From Longimicrobium sp. (GTDB lineage: Bacteria > Gemmatimonadota > Gemmatimonadetes > Longimicrobiales > Longimicrobiaceae), in assembly GCF_036280135.1 (NCBI RefSeq), contig NZ_DASURI010000399.1, positions 1 to 41,998 on the forward strand: a stretch of 41,998 bases of DNA, read 5' to 3'. Numbering within the stretch: the stretch's first letter is position 1; each line of letters begins with the position of its first letter. Below the pieces are notes generated by a model. That model was not told the origin of the DNA, did no database searches, and saw nothing but the letters and a program-made list of their open reading frames with translations. A program made the translations under genes and the position numbers. Shown piece after piece: positions 4,137 through 21,913 of the stretch.

Positions 4137-5408
4137 CGAGTCAAGATCGGCGCTCGGACGGTGGCGGCTCTGGAGTCGGGGCAAACCGTCTGGGATACGG
4201 AGATCACGGGCTTCCACGTCCGGCTCCAGCGTGCGAACGGCCGCGCGTCGTACCTGCTCCAGTACAGCCTGCTCGGACGCTTGCGGGTGCTTACGCTCGG
4301 GCGCGCAGGCAAGATCACGGTGCATCAGGCCCGGCTCCTCGCGCAGCAGAGGCTCGGGGAGCTGGCGTCCGGGCAAGACCCCGCCGCGGCCAGGGACCGG
4401 GCGAAGGGGGTGCCGACGGTCGAGGAGTTCAGCAAGCGCTACCTCGCGGAGGTGAGCGACACCAAGAAGCGGCCTGCCTCCGCAGCGAACGACCGTAGGT
4501 ATCTTCGCACCTACGTCAATCCGGCCCTTGGGCGGGACCGGCTGGACGCGCTCGACGTGCCGCGCGTGGCCGGCTTCCATCACGGCATGCGGAAGACGCC
4601 GGCGACCGCCAACAGGTGCCTCGCGCTGCTCTCGCACATGCTCAGCACGGCCGAGCGGTGGCACCTACGGCCGCAGGGGAGCAACCCGTGCAAGCTCGTG
4701 GAGCGGTTCCGCGAGCGGCCGCGCGAGCGCTACCTGACCGGCGAGGAGCTGGCGACGGTCGGCGCCGCGCTGGCTGCGGCCGAGGCCGAGGCGCCGTACA
4801 TGACCGCCGGGGTGCTGCTGCTGGCGTATACCGGCGCGCGCCCGTCCGAGGTGGCGGGCCTGCGCTGGTCGTGGCTCGACCTCGAGCGAGGGCGCGCGCA
4901 GCTCCCGGACAGCAAGACCGGGCGGCGGGTGCTGCGCCTGACCGGGCCCGCGCTGTCGGTGCTGCGGACCCTGCCGCGCCTGGCGCGCAACCCTTACGTC
5001 CTGCCCGGGCACAAGCGCGGGACGCACGTCCGGCCCGGGAGCCTCGGTCACTTCTGGCTGCGCGTCGCGCGCGGGGCCGGGTTGCGTGGCGTGCGGCTCT
5101 ACGACCTGCGACACACGTTCGCGAGCGTCGGAGCGACCTCGGGCAAGGGCCTGCCCACGATAGGCGGGATCCTGGGACACCGCCGGGCGGAGACCACGGA
5201 ACGCTACGTGCACCTGGCCGCGGATCCGCTCGCGGCGGCCGCCGATGAGATCGGGCGGGAGATCGCGGCGGCTATGCGCGGCGGGGCCGGAACAGGTGCC
5301 GGTACGTCTGGCGAGCCAGAAGGGCCGCGCGCCGCTCGGCGCCGCCCGCGGTCGCGAACGTCTCCTCGACGTGCCGCCACTCGTCGGCCTCGGAGTGCCG
5401 ATAGCTGA
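4134..5408 (+). CDS. int: Tyrosine integrase with N-terminal arm-DNA-binding domain
   Basis: VWDTEITGFHVR arm domain. Catalytic motifs YTGARPSE, SKTG, YDLRHTFAS, ILGH, TTERY. Start moved to ATG 4134 because the longer ORF runs through attP. Confidence 0.95.
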   Translation: MRVKIGARTVAALESGQTVWDTEITGFHVRLQRANGRASYLLQYSLLGRLRVLTLGRAGKITVHQARLLAQQRLGELASGQDPAAARDRAKGVPTVEEFSKRYLAEVSDTKKRPASAANDRRYLRTYVNPALGRDRLDALDVPRVAGFHHGMRKTPATANRCLALLSHMLSTAERWHLRPQGSNPCKLVERFRERPRERYLTGEELATVGAALAAAEAEAPYMTAGVLLLAYTGARPSEVAGLRWSWLDLERGRAQLPDSKTGRRVLRLTGPALSVLRTLPRLARNPYVLPGHKRGTHVRPGSLGHFWLRVARGAGLRGVRLYDLRHTFASVGATSGKGLPTIGGILGHRRAETTERYVHLAADPLAAAADEIGREIAAAMRGGAGTGAGTSGEPEGPRAARRRPRSRTSPRRAATRRPRSADS

Positions 5409-5517
5409 GGCGCCAGCGGTCCGCGAGCTGGACGGCGCGGTACAGCGGGTGCTCGTGGCCGGGGATCCGGAACAGGATCACGGCCGGCGAGATGTCGGTG
5501 CGCGTCAGGCGGGACAA
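5272..5517 (-). CDS. Small hypothetical protein overlapping the integrase 3' tail
   Basis: Only the distal ~80 codons of the 5272..5706 ORF look protein-like. Start uncertain. Confidence 0.35.
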   Translation of the reverse strand: MSRLTRTDISPAVILFRIPGHEHPLYRAVQLADRWRLSYRHSEADEWRHVEETFATAGGAERRAALLARQTYRHLFRPRRA

Positions 5518-5622
5518 CGCCGGCCCGCAGGAGATTGCCCGGGATCTAGGTGGGTCGCCCTTAGCCCTGGCACGCAAGCGGGCCGGCGAGGCGCAGGATA
5601 ACACGGCTGGCGCGCAAGCGTG

Positions 5623-5651
5623 TTGCCGGTTGCCAACAAATGTGATATAAA
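5623..5651 (+). promoter_or_regulatory. Sigma70-type promoter pointing toward the repressor 3' end
   Basis: TTGCCG-N17-TATAAA with TGn extension, in an AT-rich island. Confidence 0.55.
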
Positions 5652-5851
5652 TGTGCCGAAGTATCCAAAACGCGCCAGGCCACAATGGCCGTCCCTCCGG
5701 CCGCAATCCTTGGGGGCCTTGAATGCAATGCGGACTCTCCGCCGCCGTACAGTCGCGTAGGCTGGCCTCGTGACAGCGGAGGCCCTGCGGGACGCGCTAC
5801 TGAAGATCGCGGACGCGCAGCGCAAGCTAGCGTGGCTCGTGGCCGACATCG

Positions 5852-6190
5852 CTACTTCTTCAGGCCGGCCAGCTCGCGCGCGGCGCGCAGGTCGTCCTCG
5901 ATCGACTCCAGCCGCTTCGCCAGCCGTAGCGCTTCGTGCGAGGGCAGCGCGGCGGGGGCGAGGGCGGGCGTGACGCCAGCGTGTCCGTGCGGATCGCTGA
6001 CCAGGCCGAGCAGGTAATCGACCGAGACCCCTGTAATTTGATGGATACGGACGAGCTCGTCCATCTTGGCCTCGGTGATGCCGTTTACCCACCGCGAGAT
6101 CGCCCCCTCCGTGCGACCCATCCGGGCCGCAAAGGCCCGCTGAGACAGTCCCGTCCGGCGTAGAGCCTCACGGAGCCTGACCGCAAACAC
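5852..6190 (-). CDS. XRE-family HTH repressor (CI-like)
   Basis: RLREALRRTGLSQRAFAARMGRTEGAISRWVNG..VSVDYLLG. Divergent from the Xis/Cro-like gene. Start is GTG 6190 or TTG 6232. Confidence 0.85.
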   Translation of the reverse strand: MFAVRLREALRRTGLSQRAFAARMGRTEGAISRWVNGITEAKMDELVRIHQITGVSVDYLLGLVSDPHGHAGVTPALAPAALPSHEALRLAKRLESIEDDLRAARELAGLKK

Positions 6191-6249
6191 TTGAGAGCCT
6201 AGCGGTTGCGTAATCTCTCCAAATCTTAACAAGTAGTACCATTTTCCGC

Positions 6250-6278
6250 TTGACTGCGGGTCTAGTCGGGCCTATATT
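6250..6278 (+). promoter_or_regulatory. Early rightward sigma70 promoter
   Basis: TTGACT-N17-TATATT, with ATG 6 nt downstream. Confidence 0.8.
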
Positions 6279-6284
6279 GCTTGC

Positions 6285-6602
6285 ATGCGAAGCAAGTCGG
6301 CCCTCAACGGTTCCGCTCCCTCCCCCGTCGCGGTCCTGGACCGCGAGAACGGGGCGGCGGAAGATACCCGGAACGCAACGGGCGTTGTCCAGCCTCCGAA
6401 CACTTCCGCCGACTGTCACACGTACCTGACGACTGTCGAGGCCGCGTCGTACCTGCGGCTCCGGCCTCGGACTCTCCAGCTCTGGCGCATGCAGGGCAAG
6501 GGTCCGGACTACCGCAAGCACGGGAAGCTCCGGGTTTACACGGTCGCAGACCTCGACCGCTGGGCCGACGCTCAGCGGGTGGCCGTTCACGCCGAGAAGT
6601 AG
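6285..6602 (+). CDS. Excisionase/Cox-like HTH DNA-binding protein
   Basis: YLTTVEAASYLRLRPRTLQLWRMQGKGPDYRKHG..VY...DLDRW, an HTH_17-type pattern. Confidence 0.85.
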   Translation: MRSKSALNGSAPSPVAVLDRENGAAEDTRNATGVVQPPNTSADCHTYLTTVEAASYLRLRPRTLQLWRMQGKGPDYRKHGKLRVYTVADLDRWADAQRVAVHAEK

Positions 6603-6614
6603 GGGGGAAACGCA

Positions 6615-6902
6615 ATGACCAGCGTCGCCGTGACGAATCCGCTCCGTGGGATCTGCGCGCACTGCGGGTACACGTACCGCGGCGGCGCCGAGCCGGCCTC
6701 TCACGGGATCTGCAAGTTCTGCCTGCCGATCATCAAGGAGTTAGGCATGACCGGCGCGGCGATCGAGGCGTGCCGACGCCACGCCGAGACCCAGGTGGGC
6801 CGGCTGGAGCGCCAGATCATGGAGGGCCTGGCGCTGCGGCCGGCCCGGAAGGATCTGACCGAGGCCGAGGTGTTCGCGGGCCTGATGGAGCAGGGCCAGT
6901 GA
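6615..6902 (+). CDS. Hypothetical protein with Zn-ribbon
   Basis: CAHC...SHGICKFC motif. Confidence 0.7.
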   Translation: MTSVAVTNPLRGICAHCGYTYRGGAEPASHGICKFCLPIIKELGMTGAAIEACRRHAETQVGRLERQIMEGLALRPARKDLTEAEVFAGLMEQGQ

Positions 6903-7168
6903 GCGCCTCCCACGTCGGTTGGGAGCACGTGGCTCTGGAGCAGCGGCAGGCGCGCATCGTGCGCGTCATGGAGGTTGCCGCCTCGGGTCTGACGGAACGC
7001 GCGGCGGATCTGCGCGGCGCCGAGCCGGACGATCGCGAAGAGATCCGGATCAAGGTCGAGTCCGCGATCGAGGAGCTGCGGCTGGTGATCCAGGAGCTAC
7101 GCGACGCTGCCGATCTGCGCTCGGCCACGTCCGAGGTGCGCGCGTTCCTGCGCGGAGGTGTGCGGTGA
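6899..7168 (+). CDS. Hypothetical helical protein
   Basis: GTGA-coupled to the previous gene. Distal part of ORF 6281..7168. Confidence 0.6.
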   Translation: MSASHVGWEHVALEQRQARIVRVMEVAASGLTERAADLRGAEPDDREEIRIKVESAIEELRLVIQELRDAADLRSATSEVRAFLRGGVR

Positions 7169-7596
7169 GAAAGACCGACGCGGTGCTGCTGGCGTGCGTG
7201 CCGTGGACGGCCCTGGCGGCTCTCGGCTGGGCGGTGCTGACTCGTCCCGCCCCGGTGACCGCCAGGGCGCAGCAGGTCAAGGTGGTGACGCTCACGACGG
7301 CGCAGGCCGACGAGCTGGCGCAGCTCCAAAGCTACATCTCTGGCTTCGGGCACTACCTGGCCGCAAAGAACGGCGACCCGCAGAAAGGCATCAGGCCCAG
7401 CGTGTCCCGGGCGACGGCCATCGCCGGGATCATCGGCACCTCCTGCCGTTACCGCTCGCTCCTGACGGCCGCGACCCTGGAGACGGACGGCCTCCTCGCC
7501 ATCGAGCGGAACGACGTGACCACGGAGGACATGGAAGACACCGCGTTCGAGGCGGCCCGGTGCATCGAGCGCCGCCGGCTGCGGGCGGGCCTGTGA
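7165..7596 (+). CDS. Hypothetical membrane-anchored protein
   Basis: GGAGG RBS, GTGA coupling, N-terminal hydrophobic segment. Confidence 0.6.
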   Translation: MRKTDAVLLACVPWTALAALGWAVLTRPAPVTARAQQVKVVTLTTAQADELAQLQSYISGFGHYLAAKNGDPQKGIRPSVSRATAIAGIIGTSCRYRSLLTAATLETDGLLAIERNDVTTEDMEDTAFEAARCIERRRLRAGL

Positions 7597-7814
7597 GCGT
7601 GCTCGTCAAGCTCGCGATCGTGGCCGCCGCCGGGACCGCGGTGTACTGGCTCGCACGCCTGATGCACCGCGGCGAGGACCGTGTGTCGGCCTCGACCCTG
7701 CGCGGCCTGGACAGGACACACGAGGCCGAGGAGCCGCGGCGGTGGCTGCGCGGCAGGACGGTGTCGGAGCGCGGGCCGGTCCGGCGTGACCGGTACTCGC
7801 GGGCGATCCATTGA
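7593..7814 (+). CDS. Small membrane-anchored protein
   Basis: VSVLVKLAIVAAAGTAVYWL. GTGA coupling. Confidence 0.5.
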   Translation: MSVLVKLAIVAAAGTAVYWLARLMHRGEDRVSASTLRGLDRTHEAEEPRRWLRGRTVSERGPVRRDRYSRAIH

Positions 7815-7919
7815 GCGGGCGCTGGCAGTGCCCTTCATGTCGGCAGTGGCGGCGCGGTCCCGTGTGCGGGACGTGTCGCGTACCAAGGCCGCGGTAAGCG
7901 GCAGAAAGGCAGAGGCGTA

Positions 7920-8339
7920 ATGAAGATCGGAAGTGCGTTCCCGAGCAACTACCTGAAGCACGAGGACCTGGGCGGCCGCAACGTGCTCGTGACGATCGAG
8001 AGCGTGCGCGTCGAGGAGATCCGCGGCGAGGGCGGGAAGGAAAACAAGCCCGTCCTGTACTTCGTCGGCAAGGAAAAGGGTCTGGTCCTGAACAAGACCA
8101 ACGCGGAGACCCTCACGGAGATCCTCGGCACGGACGAAACCGACGACTGGCACGGCTGTCAGGTGGTGCTGTACCACGACCGCAACGTGAGCTTCGGCGG
8201 GAAGCGCGTGGGCGGCATCCGGATCGCGCCGGCACCGAAGCCGGCCAACGGCAAGCGGCCGCAGGCTCCGCCGCCGCCCGTGACGGAGGACGTCCCCCCG
8301 GCCGAGTTCCAGGCCACCGACGACGACATCCTTTTCTAG
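7920..8339 (+). CDS. Putative single-stranded DNA-binding protein
   Basis: Beta-rich core, Pro-rich linker and acidic C-terminal tip DDDILF. Confidence 0.6.
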   Translation: MKIGSAFPSNYLKHEDLGGRNVLVTIESVRVEEIRGEGGKENKPVLYFVGKEKGLVLNKTNAETLTEILGTDETDDWHGCQVVLYHDRNVSFGGKRVGGIRIAPAPKPANGKRPQAPPPPVTEDVPPAEFQATDDDILF

Positions 8340-8349
8340 GCGCCCGGCC

Positions 8350-9165
8350 ATGAAGATCGGGCGTTACTTCGACGCAGCGCCGGGGCCCAGGCCGGCCCCG
8401 GCCGTTCCCCGCACCCGTCCGCAGTCACCCGAGACCCTGCGCGAGTTCGGGCCTCGGTCGGAGACGGCGGTGGACCTGCTGGACCCGACGACGTACCGCA
8501 TGGTCGAGGCCCTCGCGGCAGACGTGCGGGAGATCGCGCGGCGCGCTACGGGCCAGCCCCTCAAGTCTGCCGAGGAGGCGCACCAGCTCACGGAGCTGCT
8601 GGCCCGCGCGGCCTCGGCCGGCAAAGACCTGGACCGCTACCGGCGCCAGGCAGTGGACCCGCTCAACGCGCAGGTGAAGACGATCAACGCCACGTTCAAG
8701 CCCCTGACGACGGCGATCGAGAACATCCAGGAGCGGGGCAAGCGCTCGCTCGAAGCCTGGTTGCAGCAGGAGCGGGCCCGGGTCGAGCGGGAGCGGCGCG
8801 AGGCGGAGCGGCTGGCCGAGGAGGCCGCCGCGCGCGAGGGCCAGGCCCTGCTCGAGGCCGACGCCGCGCAGACGCCGGAGCAGCGCCAGGACGCACTGGC
8901 CCGGGCCGAGGCCGCGAGCGCGGACCAAGCGGCCGCCGTCGTGGCGGCTCCGCTCCCGGCCCCGCGCGTGCTCAAGGGCGAGTACGGCACCGCGGGCCTG
9001 CGGAAGCGCTGGACCTTCGAAGTCGTGAAGCCGGAGGACGTGCCGCGGCAGTACCTGACGGTGGACGAGAAGGCGATCCGTGCGGCTGTCGCGGGCGGTG
9101 TGCGGCAGATCCCGGGCGTGTCCATCACCGAAACCGAAGAGATCGCCGTCCGGGCGGGAGGGTAA
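8350..9165 (+). CDS. Coiled-coil phage protein (Gp157/Gam-like C-terminus)
   Basis: Long helix ending in WTFEV..VPRQYL.VDEKAIR..V..GVRQIPGV. Confidence 0.55.
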   Translation: MKIGRYFDAAPGPRPAPAVPRTRPQSPETLREFGPRSETAVDLLDPTTYRMVEALAADVREIARRATGQPLKSAEEAHQLTELLARAASAGKDLDRYRRQAVDPLNAQVKTINATFKPLTTAIENIQERGKRSLEAWLQQERARVERERREAERLAEEAAAREGQALLEADAAQTPEQRQDALARAEAASADQAAAVVAAPLPAPRVLKGEYGTAGLRKRWTFEVVKPEDVPRQYLTVDEKAIRAAVAGGVRQIPGVSITETEEIAVRAGG

Positions 9166-9170
9166 CGGAC

Positions 9171-9362
9171 ATGGCCTTGCGGTTCCGTCGGTCCAATCTC
9201 AAGTACGGCGAGGACGCGCCGTCGAGCTACCAGTGCATGCGTATCCGGATGCGCGCGGAGCGGCTGGTGCTGGCGGCTCGCAAGCTCCAGACGGAGGCTC
9301 AGCGGCAGCGCAGCGAGCGCGACTCGCTCACCTGGGAAGAGCACCTGTCGAGGGCGTTATGA
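9171..9362 (+). CDS. Hypothetical protein
   Basis: GGAGG RBS. Coupled to the next gene. Confidence 0.5.
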   Translation: MALRFRRSNLKYGEDAPSSYQCMRIRMRAERLVLAARKLQTEAQRQRSERDSLTWEEHLSRAL

Positions 9363-9709
9363 AGACTGCCAAGACGTATCGCCATCAGATGCTCAGTGAG
9401 CTGCCGAAGCCGGCAAAGCTGGATCCGGTGCTGGCCGAGCCGTTGCCGGAGCCGGCCGCCGTGGTGTGGGAAGACCCGCCGCCGGCAAAGGGGCTGGGCC
9501 GCGGGAGGTCGAAGTATCCGGCGTTGTTTGCGTTGCTGCGGCAGCATCAGGGGCGCTGGGCGCTGCTCTACACCATCGGCGGCAAGACCAACAACGGCAG
9601 CATGGGCACCTACCTCCGGAAGATTGCTCTCGCGGCCGGCGGCGGCTTCGAGATCGTCCAGCGCGGGCTCAAGGTCTACGGCCGCTACGTCGGCACCAAG
9701 GCGGAGTAG
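9359..9709 (+). CDS. Hypothetical protein, possibly nucleic-acid binding
   Basis: ATGA-coupled start. Basic compact domain GRGRSKY...VYGRYVG. Confidence 0.65.
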   Translation: MKTAKTYRHQMLSELPKPAKLDPVLAEPLPEPAAVVWEDPPPAKGLGRGRSKYPALFALLRQHQGRWALLYTIGGKTNNGSMGTYLRKIALAAGGGFEIVQRGLKVYGRYVGTKAE

Positions 9710-9729
9710 GGGCCTGTGATCGTGATGAT

Positions 9730-10114
9730 GCGAGGGGGCGCGGTGTCTGGCGTACCCCTCGCCGTGACCGGCAGTCAGCAGAAGCCCGCGGAGCGGTTCC
9801 CCTCGCGTGAGCGGCCCCGCCCCGCTCGCGTCACCGTTCCGCGGGCTTTTCCTGGCGGCCGTTCAGATCACCCGCGCGTGCAGGAGGGTACGTCCGGGTG
9901 CAGCCGCTACCACGAGCGCCGGTACGCCCAAGGGCCGGCGAGACACCGCGCAGGACGGCCGCCAGGAACCTCTAGAGAGCCGGCGTCGGATCCACGCTGG
10001 AAGGCGATGGGGTGGGGCTCATTCCCCCTACATGACGCGCACGCCAGGGGCGTAGGAGCAGGAGAGCGCCCCTATCCCGGTGGCCGCGTTGCCTGACGCC
10101 GGCTCTCTAGAGGT
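9730..10114 (+). ncRNA. Multi-domain structured RNA locus (candidate antisense/regulatory RNAs)
   Basis: Stems 9730-37/9755-62, 9782-97/9833-48, 9849-64/9953-68 and 9968-89/10093-114. Stem mismatches are G.U on the + strand. Confidence 0.75.
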
Positions 10115-10121
10115 GCGGTGA

Positions 10122-10871
10122 ATGGCTGAGACATCGATTGCGTGGACGCACTACACGTTCAATCCCTGGTGGGGCTGCACGCGCGTTTCGCCGGGCTGCG
10201 AGCACTGCTACGCGGAGGCTTTCTCCCACCGCATGGGGCACGAGATATGGGGGCCGACTGCCGACCGCCGCTTCTTCGGTGACACCCACTGGAACGAGCC
10301 GCTGAAGTGGCACCGCAAGCGCCAGCAGGGCGGACCCAAGCATCTCGTCTTCTGCGCGTCAATGGCCGACGTGTTCGAGGATCGGCGCGACCTCGACGCA
10401 CCACGCGAGCGGCTCTGGTCCCTGATCGAGTCCACTCCGCTGTTGACCTGGCAGCTCCTCACCAAGCGGCCGGAGAACGCGCTCCGGCTCAGTCCGTGGG
10501 GCCAGGACAGGGGGCGCCAGTGGCCCGTCAACGTGTGGCTGGGATTCACGGCAGAGAGCCAGGAGTGGCTTGACAGGCGTTGGCCGGCCGCGCGCGCCGC
10601 GGCGTCCTGGGTGTCGCAGTTCTTCATCTCTGCCGAGCCGCTGGTCGGACCCATAACGCTCGGCCGTCGCGCCGCCTCCGTGAATTGGGTAATCACTGGC
10701 GCCGAGAGCGGGCACGGTGCCCGTCCTATGTCGCTCGATTGGGTCCGCTCGCTGCGCGACGAGTGCCAAGCCAACGGCATCGCCTTCTTCCACAAGCAGG
10801 AGATACGCGCCGGACGGAAGGTCGAGACTCCAGAGCTGGATGGCCGGCGATGGACGGAATTTCCGGAGTGA
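10122..10871 (+). CDS. Phage Gp37/Gp68 family (DUF5131) protein
   Basis: TSIAWTHYTFNPWWGCTRVSPGCEHCYA, VFCASMADVF, LLTKRPEN, WVITGAESG motifs. Confidence 0.9.
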   Translation: MAETSIAWTHYTFNPWWGCTRVSPGCEHCYAEAFSHRMGHEIWGPTADRRFFGDTHWNEPLKWHRKRQQGGPKHLVFCASMADVFEDRRDLDAPRERLWSLIESTPLLTWQLLTKRPENALRLSPWGQDRGRQWPVNVWLGFTAESQEWLDRRWPAARAAASWVSQFFISAEPLVGPITLGRRAASVNWVITGAESGHGARPMSLDWVRSLRDECQANGIAFFHKQEIRAGRKVETPELDGRRWTEFPE

Positions 10872-10878
10872 GGTGAGC

Positions 10879-11067
10879 ATGAAAGACCTGGACATCCGTT
10901 TGCTGGACCGCCAGGCCGCGCGTGAGTCCGTGATCAGGACGATCGAGGGCCTTGCGCGGGAGGCCCGCCGGGTAGTGAAGATTCATCCGTGTGGCACCGG
11001 ATCGGCCTACCGCCGCGAGCGTGCGCGATTGTTCCGGGCGGCCCTGCGCGCCGTCATGGGCGCGTAG
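10879..11067 (+). CDS. Hypothetical protein
   Basis: GAGGTG RBS then ATG. Confidence 0.55.
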   Translation: MKDLDIRLLDRQAARESVIRTIEGLAREARRVVKIHPCGTGSAYRRERARLFRAALRAVMGA

Positions 11068-11508
11068 ATGGCCTCGCCCGGCCCCTACCCCGACCGTGCC
11101 GACGATCGCGCCCCGGCGACGCGTTCCCACGCGTGCACGGGCCAATCCTGCGAAGCCCCCGGCTGCCGGAATCCGCTCCGGCCCGCCCAGGTCGCGAAGG
11201 GCGGCCGGTACTGTTCCCCGAAGTGCCGCCGCGCCGGCTGGGAAGCGCAGCACCCGCGGGCTAACCGGCCTCGGCCCGGCGTGGGCGAGGGCCGGGCGGT
11301 CGATCGCGTGCTCGGGATCATGGCCGACGGCAAGTGGCGCACCGTGCCAGAGCTGGCGGTCCTGGCCGGCTGCACCGAGGCCGGCGCCTCGGCCCGCCTG
11401 CGTGACCTGCGCAAGCCCAAGTTCGGCCGGTTCACCGTGGAGCGGCGCCCGATCGCTCCCGTGTGGACGCCGAGGCTGTACGAGTACCGCGTGATTCTCA
11501 GGGGGTGA
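11068..11508 (+). CDS. Zn-finger plus winged-HTH DNA-binding protein
   Basis: CEAPGC..YCSPKC, then MADGKWRTVPELA...ASARLRDLRK...YEYR. Confidence 0.7.
   Translation: MASPGPYPDRADDRAPATRSHACTGQSCEAPGCRNPLRPAQVAKGGRYCSPKCRRAGWEAQHPRANRPRPGVGEGRAVDRVLGIMADGKWRTVPELAVLAGCTEAGASARLRDLRKPKFGRFTVERRPIAPVWTPRLYEYRVILRG
11103..11150 (+). repeat. Dispersed ~45-bp element, copy 1
   Basis: Core ACGCGTTCCCACGCGT at 11119-11134. Confidence 0.85.
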
Positions 11509-11511
11509 TGG

Positions 11512-12348
11512 GTGGCCGGGCACTTCGTCAAGCTCTACGGTTCGATCCTGAATAGCAGCGTCTGGTGTTCCACGCCGGAGGTCAAGCTGGTGTGGATCAC
11601 CATGTTGCTACTCGGGGACGGCGACGGAAACGTCTACGGTGCTGTCCCGGGCATCGCTCGTCAGGCCGGCGTGCCAGTCGAGGCGTGTCGGGAAGCGATC
11701 AAGTACCTGAGCGGCCCCGACCCGGACTCGCGCACGCCCGACCACGAGGGCCGCCGGATCCTGCCGATAGACGGCGGCTGGAAGATCGTCAACTCCAGGA
11801 AATACCGCGAGATGCGAACTGAAAGGCAGCGGCAGTCGGCCGACCGTGCGCAGCGATACCGGGAGAGAAAGGCGGCCGGCCAGACTCGGCGTCCGCGTGA
11901 CGCGTCACGCAAATCACGCGCAGAGGTAGAGGTAGAGACAGACACTACGGATATTCCTCCGGAAGGGGCGGCTACCGCCGCACCCGCCGCGAAGAAACCG
12001 AGAGCGCCGTCAGTCCAGGCGGAAGCCGTGCAGGACTACGAGCAGCGTTTCGGCGCCGGCTCTGCCCCGGGCGGGCGGATCGCGGGCGTCATGACCCGGC
12101 TGGTGGAGCACCAGGCCGCGGCGCGTTCCGAGGAGCCGTACCCCTGCTGGTCGGGCTGGGTGCGGCCGGCGTGGCGGCGCTACCTCGCGGAGACCACGCA
12201 TCCGGCGCCGAACGTGAACGACTTCGCGCAGCATTTCGCGGACTGGGCGGGCGTGACGGCCTTGGCGCGAGCGCCGGCGCGCGGCGGCGGTGGGGCCGAG
12301 GCGCGATCCGATGCGGCCGTGGCGCGGTTCATTCAGCGCGGGAGGTGA
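11512..12348 (+). CDS. Putative replication initiator (replisome organizer)
   Basis: FVKLYGSILNSSVW wHTH-type N-terminus, R-rich helix, EVEVETDT linker, internal palindrome. Confidence 0.7.
   Translation: MAGHFVKLYGSILNSSVWCSTPEVKLVWITMLLLGDGDGNVYGAVPGIARQAGVPVEACREAIKYLSGPDPDSRTPDHEGRRILPIDGGWKIVNSRKYREMRTERQRQSADRAQRYRERKAAGQTRRPRDASRKSRAEVEVETDTTDIPPEGAATAAPAAKKPRAPSVQAEAVQDYEQRFGAGSAPGGRIAGVMTRLVEHQAAARSEEPYPCWSGWVRPAWRRYLAETTHPAPNVNDFAQHFADWAGVTALARAPARGGGGAEARSDAAVARFIQRGR
11895..11946. other. Candidate replication origin inside the initiator gene
   Basis: Perfect 16-bp palindrome GCGTGACGCGTCACGC, an extra TCACGC, then AGAGGT/AGAGAC hexamer repeats. Confidence 0.45.
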
Positions 12349-14103: not shown

Positions 14104-14132
14104 TTGACAAACGATAGGCACTCTGCTATATT
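14104..14132 (+). promoter_or_regulatory. Strong sigma70 promoter
   Basis: TTGACA-N17-TATATT with TGn extension. ATG 6 nt downstream. Confidence 0.85.
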
Positions 14133-14677: not shown

Positions 14678-14910
14678 TGTCGAATCAGGGGCGGATGGAC
14701 GCGGAGGCAGACGCGGCGCAGCTCAGAATCGCGTGGCGTGACACCTGGGGCACCGAAGGGCGCATCTTCGATGCCACTTACGCGATGGATTGGCCGCAGG
14801 GGCCGGACTGCCGAGCCGCAAAGCACCACGCAACCATCAGCGCGCGGGCCGTGTTCATCGCCGTCCCCGGCCTGCGAGACGACGAGCCGGGGGAGCGCGA
14901 GGGGGAGTGA
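14677..14910 (+). CDS. Accessory hypothetical protein
   Basis: TGATG coupling. Confidence 0.55.
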   Translation: MSNQGRMDAEADAAQLRIAWRDTWGTEGRIFDATYAMDWPQGPDCRAAKHHATISARAVFIAVPGLRDDEPGEREGE

Positions 14911-20282: not shown

Positions 20283-20552
20283 ATGAGCGACTGGAAGCCG
20301 ATCGAGAGCGCGCCGAGGGATGGGACGCATCTGCTGCTGTACTCGGCGGAGTGGACAAGGCATGCCGTTAACACTGACGCGAGGTCGTTCGCTGGCGGTC
20401 GCGAGCCGGCGCCAGCGTTTGCCAGGATCAGGGGAGTCTACGAAGGGCGCTGGTCGGACGTTGGGGCCTGCTGGTATTCGGTCACTCGCCACAAGTTCCT
20501 TTCGCCGCCGACCCACTGGATGCCGCTGCCAGATCCGCCGGAGGGGGAATGA
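20283..20552 (+). CDS. DUF551-like phage protein
   Basis: WKPIESAPRDGT...PTHWMPLPDPP. Confidence 0.8.
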   Translation: MSDWKPIESAPRDGTHLLLYSAEWTRHAVNTDARSFAGGREPAPAFARIRGVYEGRWSDVGACWYSVTRHKFLSPPTHWMPLPDPPEGE

Positions 20553-21913
20553 GCGACACCCCGCAGGTGCCGGCCAACCTCGAGGCCGAGCGCTGGGTGC
20601 TGGGCGGGATCATGACGGCCGGGCTGCGCGAGAAGGGGCTCGACCGCGTCGCGCCGATCCTGTCCGCGGGAGACTTCTACCCGTTCAAGCACCAGACGAT
20701 CTACGCGGCCATGCTCGAGCTGGCGCGGCAGGGGGAGGACCCGGACCTGATCACGCTGGTGAACCAGCTACGCCGGGGCCAGCAGATCGAGGGTGTCGGG
20801 GGCGAGAAGTACGTGGCGGGCCTGGTGGACGGCGTGCCGCGCGTGACGGGCATCGAGGGCTGGGCGCGGATCGTGCGGCGGCACAGCCTGCGTCGGCAGG
20901 TGGCAGCGGCCGCAGAGGGGATCGCGCTGGCGGCGATGATGGACGATCGCGACCCCGAGGAGGTGATCGAGGCCGGCCTGGGCGAGCTGGTACGGCTGTC
21001 GAAGGCGGCTACGGACCGGGCCTTCCCGGACAACGCCGACCTGGTCAAGCGAGTGATCGCGGACGCCGAGGCGCGGGAGCTGGAGCCCGACGGCATCCTC
21101 GGATGGCGTAGCGGCATTGTCGGCCTCGACCGTGCGTTGCAGGGTATCCAGGGCGGGGAGCTGGGCCTGGTGTGCGGCGGGCGTGGCGAGGGCAAAAGCG
21201 CGATGGTGTTGCAGATCGCGCAGAACGTGGTCGCTACCGCGCCGGGCCGGGTCGTGTACTTCACGCTGGAGATGAAACCGGAGATCCTGACCGAGCGCCG
21301 CCTGTCGGGCGAGGCCGGGGTGTCGGTGCGTTCGCTGTGGAAGTACCGCTACTCACCTGACGAGCGCGCGCAGCGTTGGGCCCGGATCGCCAAGGCCGAG
21401 CCGGTGATCGCGCGGCCCGAGCTGGTGACGTGCTCCAGCGCGCGCACGGTCGGCCACATGCGGGCCCGGGCGCGGCAGATCCAGGCCGAGCACGGCCTGT
21501 CCCTCGTGGTGGTGGACTACCTCCAGCTCGTGCGTCCGGCGCAGGCCAAGCAGCGGCGTAACGAGGAGGTCGCGGAGGTGGCGCGCGACCTGAAAGACCT
21601 GGCGATGGACCTGAACGTGCCCGTTGTGGCGGCGTGCCAGCTCAACCGCGGCCCGGCTTCGCGCAAGGATGGCAGGCCGGCCATGACCGACATCGCGGAC
21701 AGCGACGAGCCGGGCAAGGCATGCGATTGGGCGGTGCTGATTCACCGGCTGGACCTGACGCAGCCGACGCCGGAGCGGCGCGAGGAGATGAAGGGGCAGG
21801 TGGACTTGATCATCGGGAAGCACAGGAACGGCTGGGCCTCGGACGTGCGCGTGCGGTTCCTGGGCGCGGTGACGCAGTACATCGATGCGCCGGAGGTTGA
21901 GATCACGACTTGA
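20549..21913 (+). CDS. dnaB: Replicative DNA helicase
   Basis: NLEAERWVLG N-domain, Walker A GGRGEGKS, FTLEM, VVVDYLQL, QLNR, IIGKHRNG. Confidence 0.92.
   Translation: MSDTPQVPANLEAERWVLGGIMTAGLREKGLDRVAPILSAGDFYPFKHQTIYAAMLELARQGEDPDLITLVNQLRRGQQIEGVGGEKYVAGLVDGVPRVTGIEGWARIVRRHSLRRQVAAAAEGIALAAMMDDRDPEEVIEAGLGELVRLSKAATDRAFPDNADLVKRVIADAEARELEPDGILGWRSGIVGLDRALQGIQGGELGLVCGGRGEGKSAMVLQIAQNVVATAPGRVVYFTLEMKPEILTERRLSGEAGVSVRSLWKYRYSPDERAQRWARIAKAEPVIARPELVTCSSARTVGHMRARARQIQAEHGLSLVVVDYLQLVRPAQAKQRRNEEVAEVARDLKDLAMDLNVPVVAACQLNRGPASRKDGRPAMTDIADSDEPGKACDWAVLIHRLDLTQPTPERREEMKGQVDLIIGKHRNGWASDVRVRFLGAVTQYIDAPEVEITT

Follow-up and report, generated by a model that had tools for sequence, protein, structure and literature searches.

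Three abutting stem-closed domains form an uncatalogued structured RNA locus in a podophage early operon

Three long-stemmed domains (A, B and C), preceded by a short leader and stacked end to end at positions 9710-10121 within an early operon, constitute a real, uncatalogued structured RNA locus and a new form of phage early-operon regulatory RNA, the function of which is unproven. The cassette lies between a 116-aa gene and a DUF5131 gene (Table 1) on contig NZ_DASURI010000399.1, which was analysed as a whole (41,998 nucleotides, hereafter the window) and belongs to a 7.3-Mb soil-metagenome bin. The window encodes an integrase, an excisionase-like protein, a repressor on the - strand, recombination genes and DnaB, together with terminase, portal, capsid, head-closure and ejection proteins, and by this gene content the contig is a temperate P22-like podophage. 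The early-operon promoter, ~3.5 kb upstream, likely transcribes the cassette. No description of this arrangement was found in the titles and abstract openings surveyed; six supplementary files of PMC10690425 contained no match, though the motif may be among the candidates of that study.

Table 1 Features of the cassette and its surroundings (window coordinates).
Feature	Position	Strand	Remark
Sigma70-like early-operon promoter	6250..6278	+	Sole promoter-like site in 5400-12000 (promoter scan)
116-aa gene, unnamed small-protein family	9359..9709	+	Upstream neighbour; no Pfam or PHROG match
126-codon open frame across the cassette	9716..10096	+	Non-coding by codon use, first 30 codons possibly excepted
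Bipartite leader stretch, contiguous 19 nt	9730..9748	+	Predicted complements in A and B
Leader hairpin, 12 bp, weak	9730..9762	+	Predicted fold
Linker; in an alternative fold, can pair with the 5' arm of B and so lengthen stem A	9765..9781	+	Folding intermediates
Domain A: 16-bp stem, 7-nt C-rich bulge, 10-bp stem, C-rich 7-nt loop	9782..9848	+	Predicted fold
Domain B: 15-16-bp stem around hairpins 9869-9900 (loop AGGAGG) and 9917-9940	9849..9968	+	Predicted fold
Domain C: 22-bp stem; arms are tetraloop hairpin 9995-10006, bulged hairpin 10009-10031 and arm 10034-10090	9968..10114	+	Predicted fold
Shine-Dalgarno-like GAGGTG of the DUF5131 gene	10110..10115	+	5/6 bases paired in the C stem
DUF5131 gene	10122..10871	+	PF07505, E 8e-64
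DnaB ribosome-binding site and start	20542..20562	+	19/21 bases complementary to C 10009-10029; candidate target

All of the stems named in the initial annotation were found at their positions, and the predicted fold of the whole region (MFE -242.8 kcal/mol, z -5.10) was matched by none of 100 shuffled controls. Each domain also stood out separately on the + strand, with z-scores of -7.0 for A, -4.0 for B and -6.5 for C (0/200 shuffles each), and the - strand gave weaker values (-4.7, -2.6 and -5.75, respectively). Several details had to be revised. The leader hairpin is present, but its stability is at chance level (z -0.9, 33/200), and domain C, described as enclosing probably two hairpins, is predicted to carry three arms instead. 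The domains do abut without single-stranded linkers, but A is extendable to 9780-9850, which creates a 2-nt overlap with B, and A9968 is common to B and C. Four U residues (9847-9850) lie at the 3' end of domain A. In a sliding z-scan, noisy at eight shuffles per window, the top windows were G.U-rich coding stretches. As a side observation, the 5' arm of B has an alternative partner at 9903-09, followed by CCA, which gives an acceptor-like stem (window 9853-9912) in a predicted folding intermediate and may be due to chance.

The stacking itself is rare. Among the 14 uninterrupted + strand helices of at least 13 bp in the window, the longest are those of C (22 bp), A (18 bp when extended) and B (16 bp), followed by one of 14 bp. 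The whole bin, searched on both strands, contains 1941 helices of at least 15 bp that enclose at least 25 nt; four pairs of them abut, two of which are A-B and B-C, and A-B-C is the sole chain of three in the 7.3 Mb. The surroundings of ssb relatives (120 loci, 1.26 Mb) contained no chain of three either. A further assembly, from run X1, may stem from the source sample and is therefore not independent; it is identical over the stretch on two contigs that overlap by only 19 nt (9961-9979), neither of which bridges the B/C joint by 31 letters.

The view that this structure belongs to the RNA of the + strand was supported by three features: the stronger + strand z-scores, the type of stem defects and the lack of coding character. 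Among defects flanked by Watson-Crick pairs, five are G.U on the + strand and none is A.C (5:0, p about 0.03), as the initial annotation had noted for the mismatches; the further defects comprise one C.C, three terminal or C.C-adjacent G.U and one A.C just inside the end of the C stem. The open frame 9716-10096, whose stop lies inside the 3' arm of C, had a codon score of -0.25 and a GC3 of 0.73, compared with scores of 0.08-0.42 and GC3 of 0.82-0.97 in the 15 training genes, and all six frames across the gap scored as non-coding; the first 30 codons scored 0.06. Nine of 11 held-out neighbour genes scored 0.07-0.30, and the two negative ones are probably wrong frames. The exact protein is absent from a 15-billion protein collection in which seven other proteins of the window are present, and together with the codon score this speaks against conservation of the frame as a protein.

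A related phage, L095 (terminase 70%, ssb 55%, capsid 52%; record 96% complete; top-ranked of 80 viral ssb loci), carries a 164-nt domain in the gap before its ssb gene (L095:1923-2086, z -7.3) that we consider, with good though not full confidence, a homolog of C. The domain was chosen by eye from 19 folded candidates drawn from 59 helices, plus several tandem pairs. It shares the core of the closing arm of C at a score reached by 4/1069 host arms and 73/5000 shuffles. Both domains have a tetraloop hairpin followed by a bulged (pentaloop) hairpin, and 19/26 bases of the latter are identical, a match reached by 18/1384 host interiors and 13/3000 random pieces; none of 1384 controls reached both the arm-core and the interior score. 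All seven pairs of the bulged hairpin are kept (four unchanged, two with a one-sided and one with a two-sided change), although a shuffle test of the pair count on just two sequences is uninformative (276/500). Neither A nor B was found beside the L095 domain, and the occurrence of this likely homolog on its own agrees with the claim that the domains are separable modules. Upstream of it, L095:1730-1925 contains a promoter-like sequence and ~170 nt of further predicted hairpins. Other single domains with closing stems of 16-24 bp were noticed near ssb-family genes of related phages (L111/L113:7317-7422, L188:5856-5959, L175:2439-2639, L100:5829-5917 and L194:2923-3084), none of which matched Rfam; their intergenic position was judged by eye only.

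Further relatives were sought by several routes. A DNA search of 60 relatives and 400 genomes of the class returned nothing but short matches, which either lay outside the cassette or spanned no more than 42 bases, and INPHARED yielded four chance 27-mers for the cassette and none for the L095 domain; the unpublished genome G056 contributes to these negative counts alone. The B pattern gave 16 matches in a viral collection, none with the fold, and both matches of the metagenome pattern proved to be antisense of an ABC-transporter ATPase gene. No match was obtained with the C-loop pattern in a genome scan or with the A pattern in a viral scan. Single-sequence covariance models detected A in its own genome only, B in 0/150 and C in 0/70, with nothing below E 0.2 in 100 of 120 ssb loci and nothing for B in 38 other loci; such models are insensitive, since the C model missed L095. 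A C-family pattern matched 1/70, against three control matches, and the match was not stem-closed. A third member was not found. Upstream of DUF5131 genes, 33/34 of the loci checked lacked such a cassette; in the capsid relative G062 (97% complete), ssb and NinB are 550 nt apart and long stems are absent there; and a DnaB scan returned one distant locus. No alignment was obtained between B and C.

The leader may connect A and B. Its first half (9730-37) is complementary over 8 bp to the bulge and the first bases of the upper stem of A (9799-9806), and its second half (9738-48) could form 11 perfect bp with the junction of B (9941-51), the longest complementarity outside the core stems. The 11 bp were equalled in 3/600 shuffles of the free bases, or in 6/300 when one G.U was allowed, by a test devised after the match had been seen, and 9738-48 is the genome-best complement of the B junction. 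Both partners lie 16 bp from the A/B joint, an arrangement that would suit a leader bracing the A and B helices side by side. The bulge of A has three genome matches of at least 9 nt, namely the leader, a site at 14897 behind a second promoter, and one on the - strand. The 7-10 bp between the loop of A and C are within the shuffle range. Folding simulations also predict intermediates in which the linker captures the 5' arm of B. At the 3' end of the cassette, the DUF5131 ribosome-binding site is predicted to be buried, with an unpaired probability of at most 0.04 at 10110-14, and deleting the 5' arm of C in the model freed it only in part.

No att or CRISPR spacer match connects the phage to the bin, and the link is by binning alone; the repeat families of the bin suggest a Longimicrobium-like host, and one ssb homolog carries the label Longimicrobiaceae. 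By domain search, RNase III was not found in the bin itself (0/1) or in any genome of its genus (0/37: the bin and 36 others; 17/37 at least 90% complete; 8/14 controls positive), whereas RNase P, RNase E/G, CsrA and Ro60 are encoded in the bin. Long intergenic helices surrounding a domain or masking a ribosome-binding site are typical of RNase III processing stems, as in rRNA operons and T7 early mRNA. The cassette is like these in helix size (~20 bp or more; C 22 bp, A 16 + 10 bp), but differs in that its binned host belongs to a genus in which RNase III was not detected. The part of PMC3071783 that was available is silent on the absence of RNase III. Hundreds of long palindromic repeats, belonging to several families, also occur in the bin, with 557 helices of 18 bp or more.

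As the best explanation, though only a tentative one, we propose that the cassette is a cis-acting post-transcriptional RNA checkpoint on the downstream early genes, assembled from portable modules. The three abutting inverted repeats would fold on the early-operon transcript into self-closing domains, each clamped by its long stem, so that it could fold independently and phages could acquire or drop it as a unit, as seems to have happened with C. The leader at 9730-48, just behind a cluster of possible start codons, would alternate between forming its weak hairpin and cross-bracing the bulge of A and the junction of B. This toggle, or a ribosome on the upstream frame reaching the stop in the 3' arm of C, would set read-through past the U4 of A and would likewise decide whether the buried DUF5131 ribosome-binding site opens. 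The RNA would remain a single piece, with neither RNase III nor RNase P dividing it into three.

The checkpoint is suggested by the 11 perfect leader-B pairs directly beside the 8-bp leader-A complement, by the alternative linker-B helix among the predicted intermediates, and by the pairing of the DUF5131 site within the stem of C. The abutment of the domains without a single-stranded linker and the 0/37 count for RNase III point the same way, as does the likely C homolog, which likewise occupies an early intergenic gap and ends next to a ribosome-binding site. Other results weaken the proposal. The searches yielded no homolog of the leader, A or B, leaving the cross-pairings without covariation, and the pairing tests were devised post hoc. 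In L095, the strong stem stops 2 nt short of the site and overlaps it very little, and the retained inner hairpins point to a binding function instead. The site is only partly freed without the 5' arm of C, the U4 is a poor terminator tail for which a terminator scan gave no call, the upstream frame scores as non-coding overall, and the nuclease argument depends on a host link by binning.

A binding function is central to the next explanation, which we regard as unlikely but as a serious competitor: the domains would be a stack of independent, stable small RNAs, each clamped by its stem and surviving the trimming of the flanking mRNA, that act in trans as decoys or scaffolds by binding a protein or complex through conserved inner hairpins. 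The likely homolog of C occurs by itself and retains both the tetraloop and the bulged pentaloop hairpin, and other relatives have single stem-closed domains close to ssb. The bin also encodes RNase E/G, CsrA and Ro60, and GGA is present in three predicted loops. GGA is, however, not enriched (eight by eye versus ~8 expected from a composition estimate), no partner was identified, linkers for an endonuclease are absent, and independent RNAs would leave the leader complementarities unexplained.

The initial annotation had interpreted A as CI-shaped and B and C as C4-shaped, which corresponds to processed antisense immunity RNAs, here directed against the leader and the start of the phage DnaB gene; we judge this improbable. 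According to the accessible text of the sources, C4 is about 77 nt long and is processed by RNase P, which cuts at a GG(W) start on the closing stem (PMC5320573), whereas CI pairs with targets upstream (seqA) and downstream (seqC) and blocks replication genes through these flanking targets (PMC4825925). The match between C and the DnaB start, with a predicted duplex of -42.9 kcal/mol, is suggestive: scored against 64 start regions, it was equalled in 5/2000 dinucleotide shuffles, 1/600 trinucleotide shuffles and 3/1500 host windows, a restriction made post hoc, and RNase P is encoded in the bin. Genome-wide, however, the same match is ordinary, being equalled in 57/300 shuffles and 34/99 other windows. 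Nor is it kept in L095, where the hairpin loop differs, the DnaB match is absent and no antisense complement over 10 nt exists in the record. The second hairpin of B is complementary to 20/22 bases of the integrase gene (window 4521-4542), which is at chance level genome-wide.

Membership in either family was not borne out. Rfam gave no match at gathering score and, up to E 10, two unrelated matches (E 4-6), with C4 not among them. B does have the C4-like form of a closing helix around two hairpins, but C has three arms. For the C4 trait of two loops pairing with adjoining sites at a target ribosome-binding site, the one candidate counterpart is the DnaB start match of C, which reached significance in the post hoc restricted test alone. 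At 120 nt and 147 nt, B and C exceed the ~77 nt of C4, both lack a single-stranded 5' leader, and the stems of the three domains start with AAG, UUC and ACC, none with GG(W). Like the P1/P7 system (PMC5320573, PMC12197685, as far as these texts were available), the cassette also has, in C, a C-rich strand that could pair with a ribosome-binding site; unlike it, no antirepressor was recognised among the proteins scanned. As for CI, a processed stable RNA that brings about premature termination, a likeness holds in that the single-stranded parts of A and B are predicted to match an upstream, seqA-like target, the leader at 9730-48, but a second, seqC-like target downstream in the same transcript was not found. 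P4 is likewise a temperate phage with a structured RNA in its early transcript whose single-stranded parts match sequence just upstream (PMC4825925, in part), and the logic of the cassette resembles the CI-seqA pairing by analogy, albeit intramolecularly. It differs in having no sequence or model match, in addressing one leader target with two domains, in its 3.5-kb distance from the promoter and in the additional presence of a protein repressor in the phage. Because RNase III is found in 0/37 genomes, there is, if the binned host is right, no obvious enzyme to release three RNAs.

A wider version of modular assembly, for which we see slightly less reason still, would make the cassette one product of a podophage toolkit, in which stem-clamped modules are stacked in early operons and wired by new cross-pairings, with A and B as a leader-braced, side-by-side tertiary switch and C, a portable domain, re-aimed at the helicase start of the phage itself. 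If true, this would represent an RNA-only, nuclease-independent layer of the lysis-lysogeny decision, suited to a host lineage without RNase III.

It is more doubtful again that the domains are stacked DNA-level inverted repeats of the REP or MITE type without RNA function. The richness of the bin in long palindromic families and the ability of the stems to fold on the - strand would accord with such an origin. The cassette, however, is single-copy and matches none of the repeat families of the bin, several similar host copies were not found, and the 5:0 G.U bias, the ordered inner hairpins and the pair-preserving changes in L095 also speak against this origin.

A nascent-RNA antiterminator acting on RNA polymerase, like put of phage HK022, with the long stems as a scaffold, appears very unlikely. 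In its favour, no N- or Q-like antiterminator was present among 57 proteins (PHROGs scan), the likely L095 homolog lies ~170 nt behind a promoter-like sequence recognised by eye, and putR is located ~270 nt behind its start according to the available part of PMC9378689. That system, as described in the parts of PMC9974457 and PMC9378689 consulted, shares with the cassette the adjacent stem-loops on an early phage transcript; it is nevertheless ~70 nt long, with two stem-loops near the promoter, whereas the cassette is five times larger and ~3.5 kb into the operon, and no similarity was found.

Least probable are tRNA-like or Y-RNA-like decoys against host RNA repair or Ro60: 17 nt of C equal the anticodon arm of a phage tRNA-Met (sole match in the viral collection), which by itself entails complementarity to a start codon, the last hairpin of the L095 domain and a T-arm-like stretch next to the host Ro60 gene have 13 nt in common, and sub-threshold YrlA-like RNAs lie next to that gene, but ARAGORN and Rfam detected no tRNA or tmRNA cloverleaf in the window, YrlA matches and the GNCGAA(N)G and T-loop motifs are absent from cassette and L095 alike, and the anticodon-like loop is not kept in L095. 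YrlA RNAs, which are known from phages, resemble the cassette in their long 5'-3' closing stem and multi-hairpin domain, and the bin has Ro60, but the cassette lacks the Ro-binding motif and the T-arm, and no Ro60 gene was recognised in the phage (PMC4201824, in part). On the sequence features tested, the cassette is not a member of the C4, CI, put or YrlA families; self-cleaving ribozymes and riboswitches gave no Rfam match.

Other features of the phage and the bin were recorded along the way. The family of the 116-aa gene product, with the signature W-x-D-P-P ... Y-x-R-Y-V-G, has 92 representatives at 50% identity, and one close relative is known (P0002, 87%, encoded on a 36-kb contig). A 16-bp palindrome, ACGCGT-N4-ACGCGT, occurs at window positions 11119, 25978 and 39578, two of them just 5' of late genes, with no copy in the remainder of the bin or in G487, and is likely an operator or activator site. 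At 14104-14132, a near-consensus sigma70 promoter (TTGACA, 17 nt, TATATT) was recognised by eye, from which a second early operon, made up of small genes with DnaB last, is likely transcribed. In the bin, the Ro60 gene (L220:2716-3288, G000:C25) is preceded by a tRNA and three tandem YrlA-like matches (25-33 bits versus a threshold of 69), which are possibly divergent Y RNAs.

Known regulatory RNAs from phages of uncultured soil bacteria are few, and the cassette combines two named cross-pairings and a buried ribosome-binding site in a compact, directly testable construct of 400 nt. The apparent absence of RNase III from the genus of the bin could explain how unbroken helices of 16-22 bp are tolerated. 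If our reading holds, C and its counterpart in L095 would be the two members of a new RNA family, and the locus would show that phages can build larger riboregulators by stacking self-folding modules.
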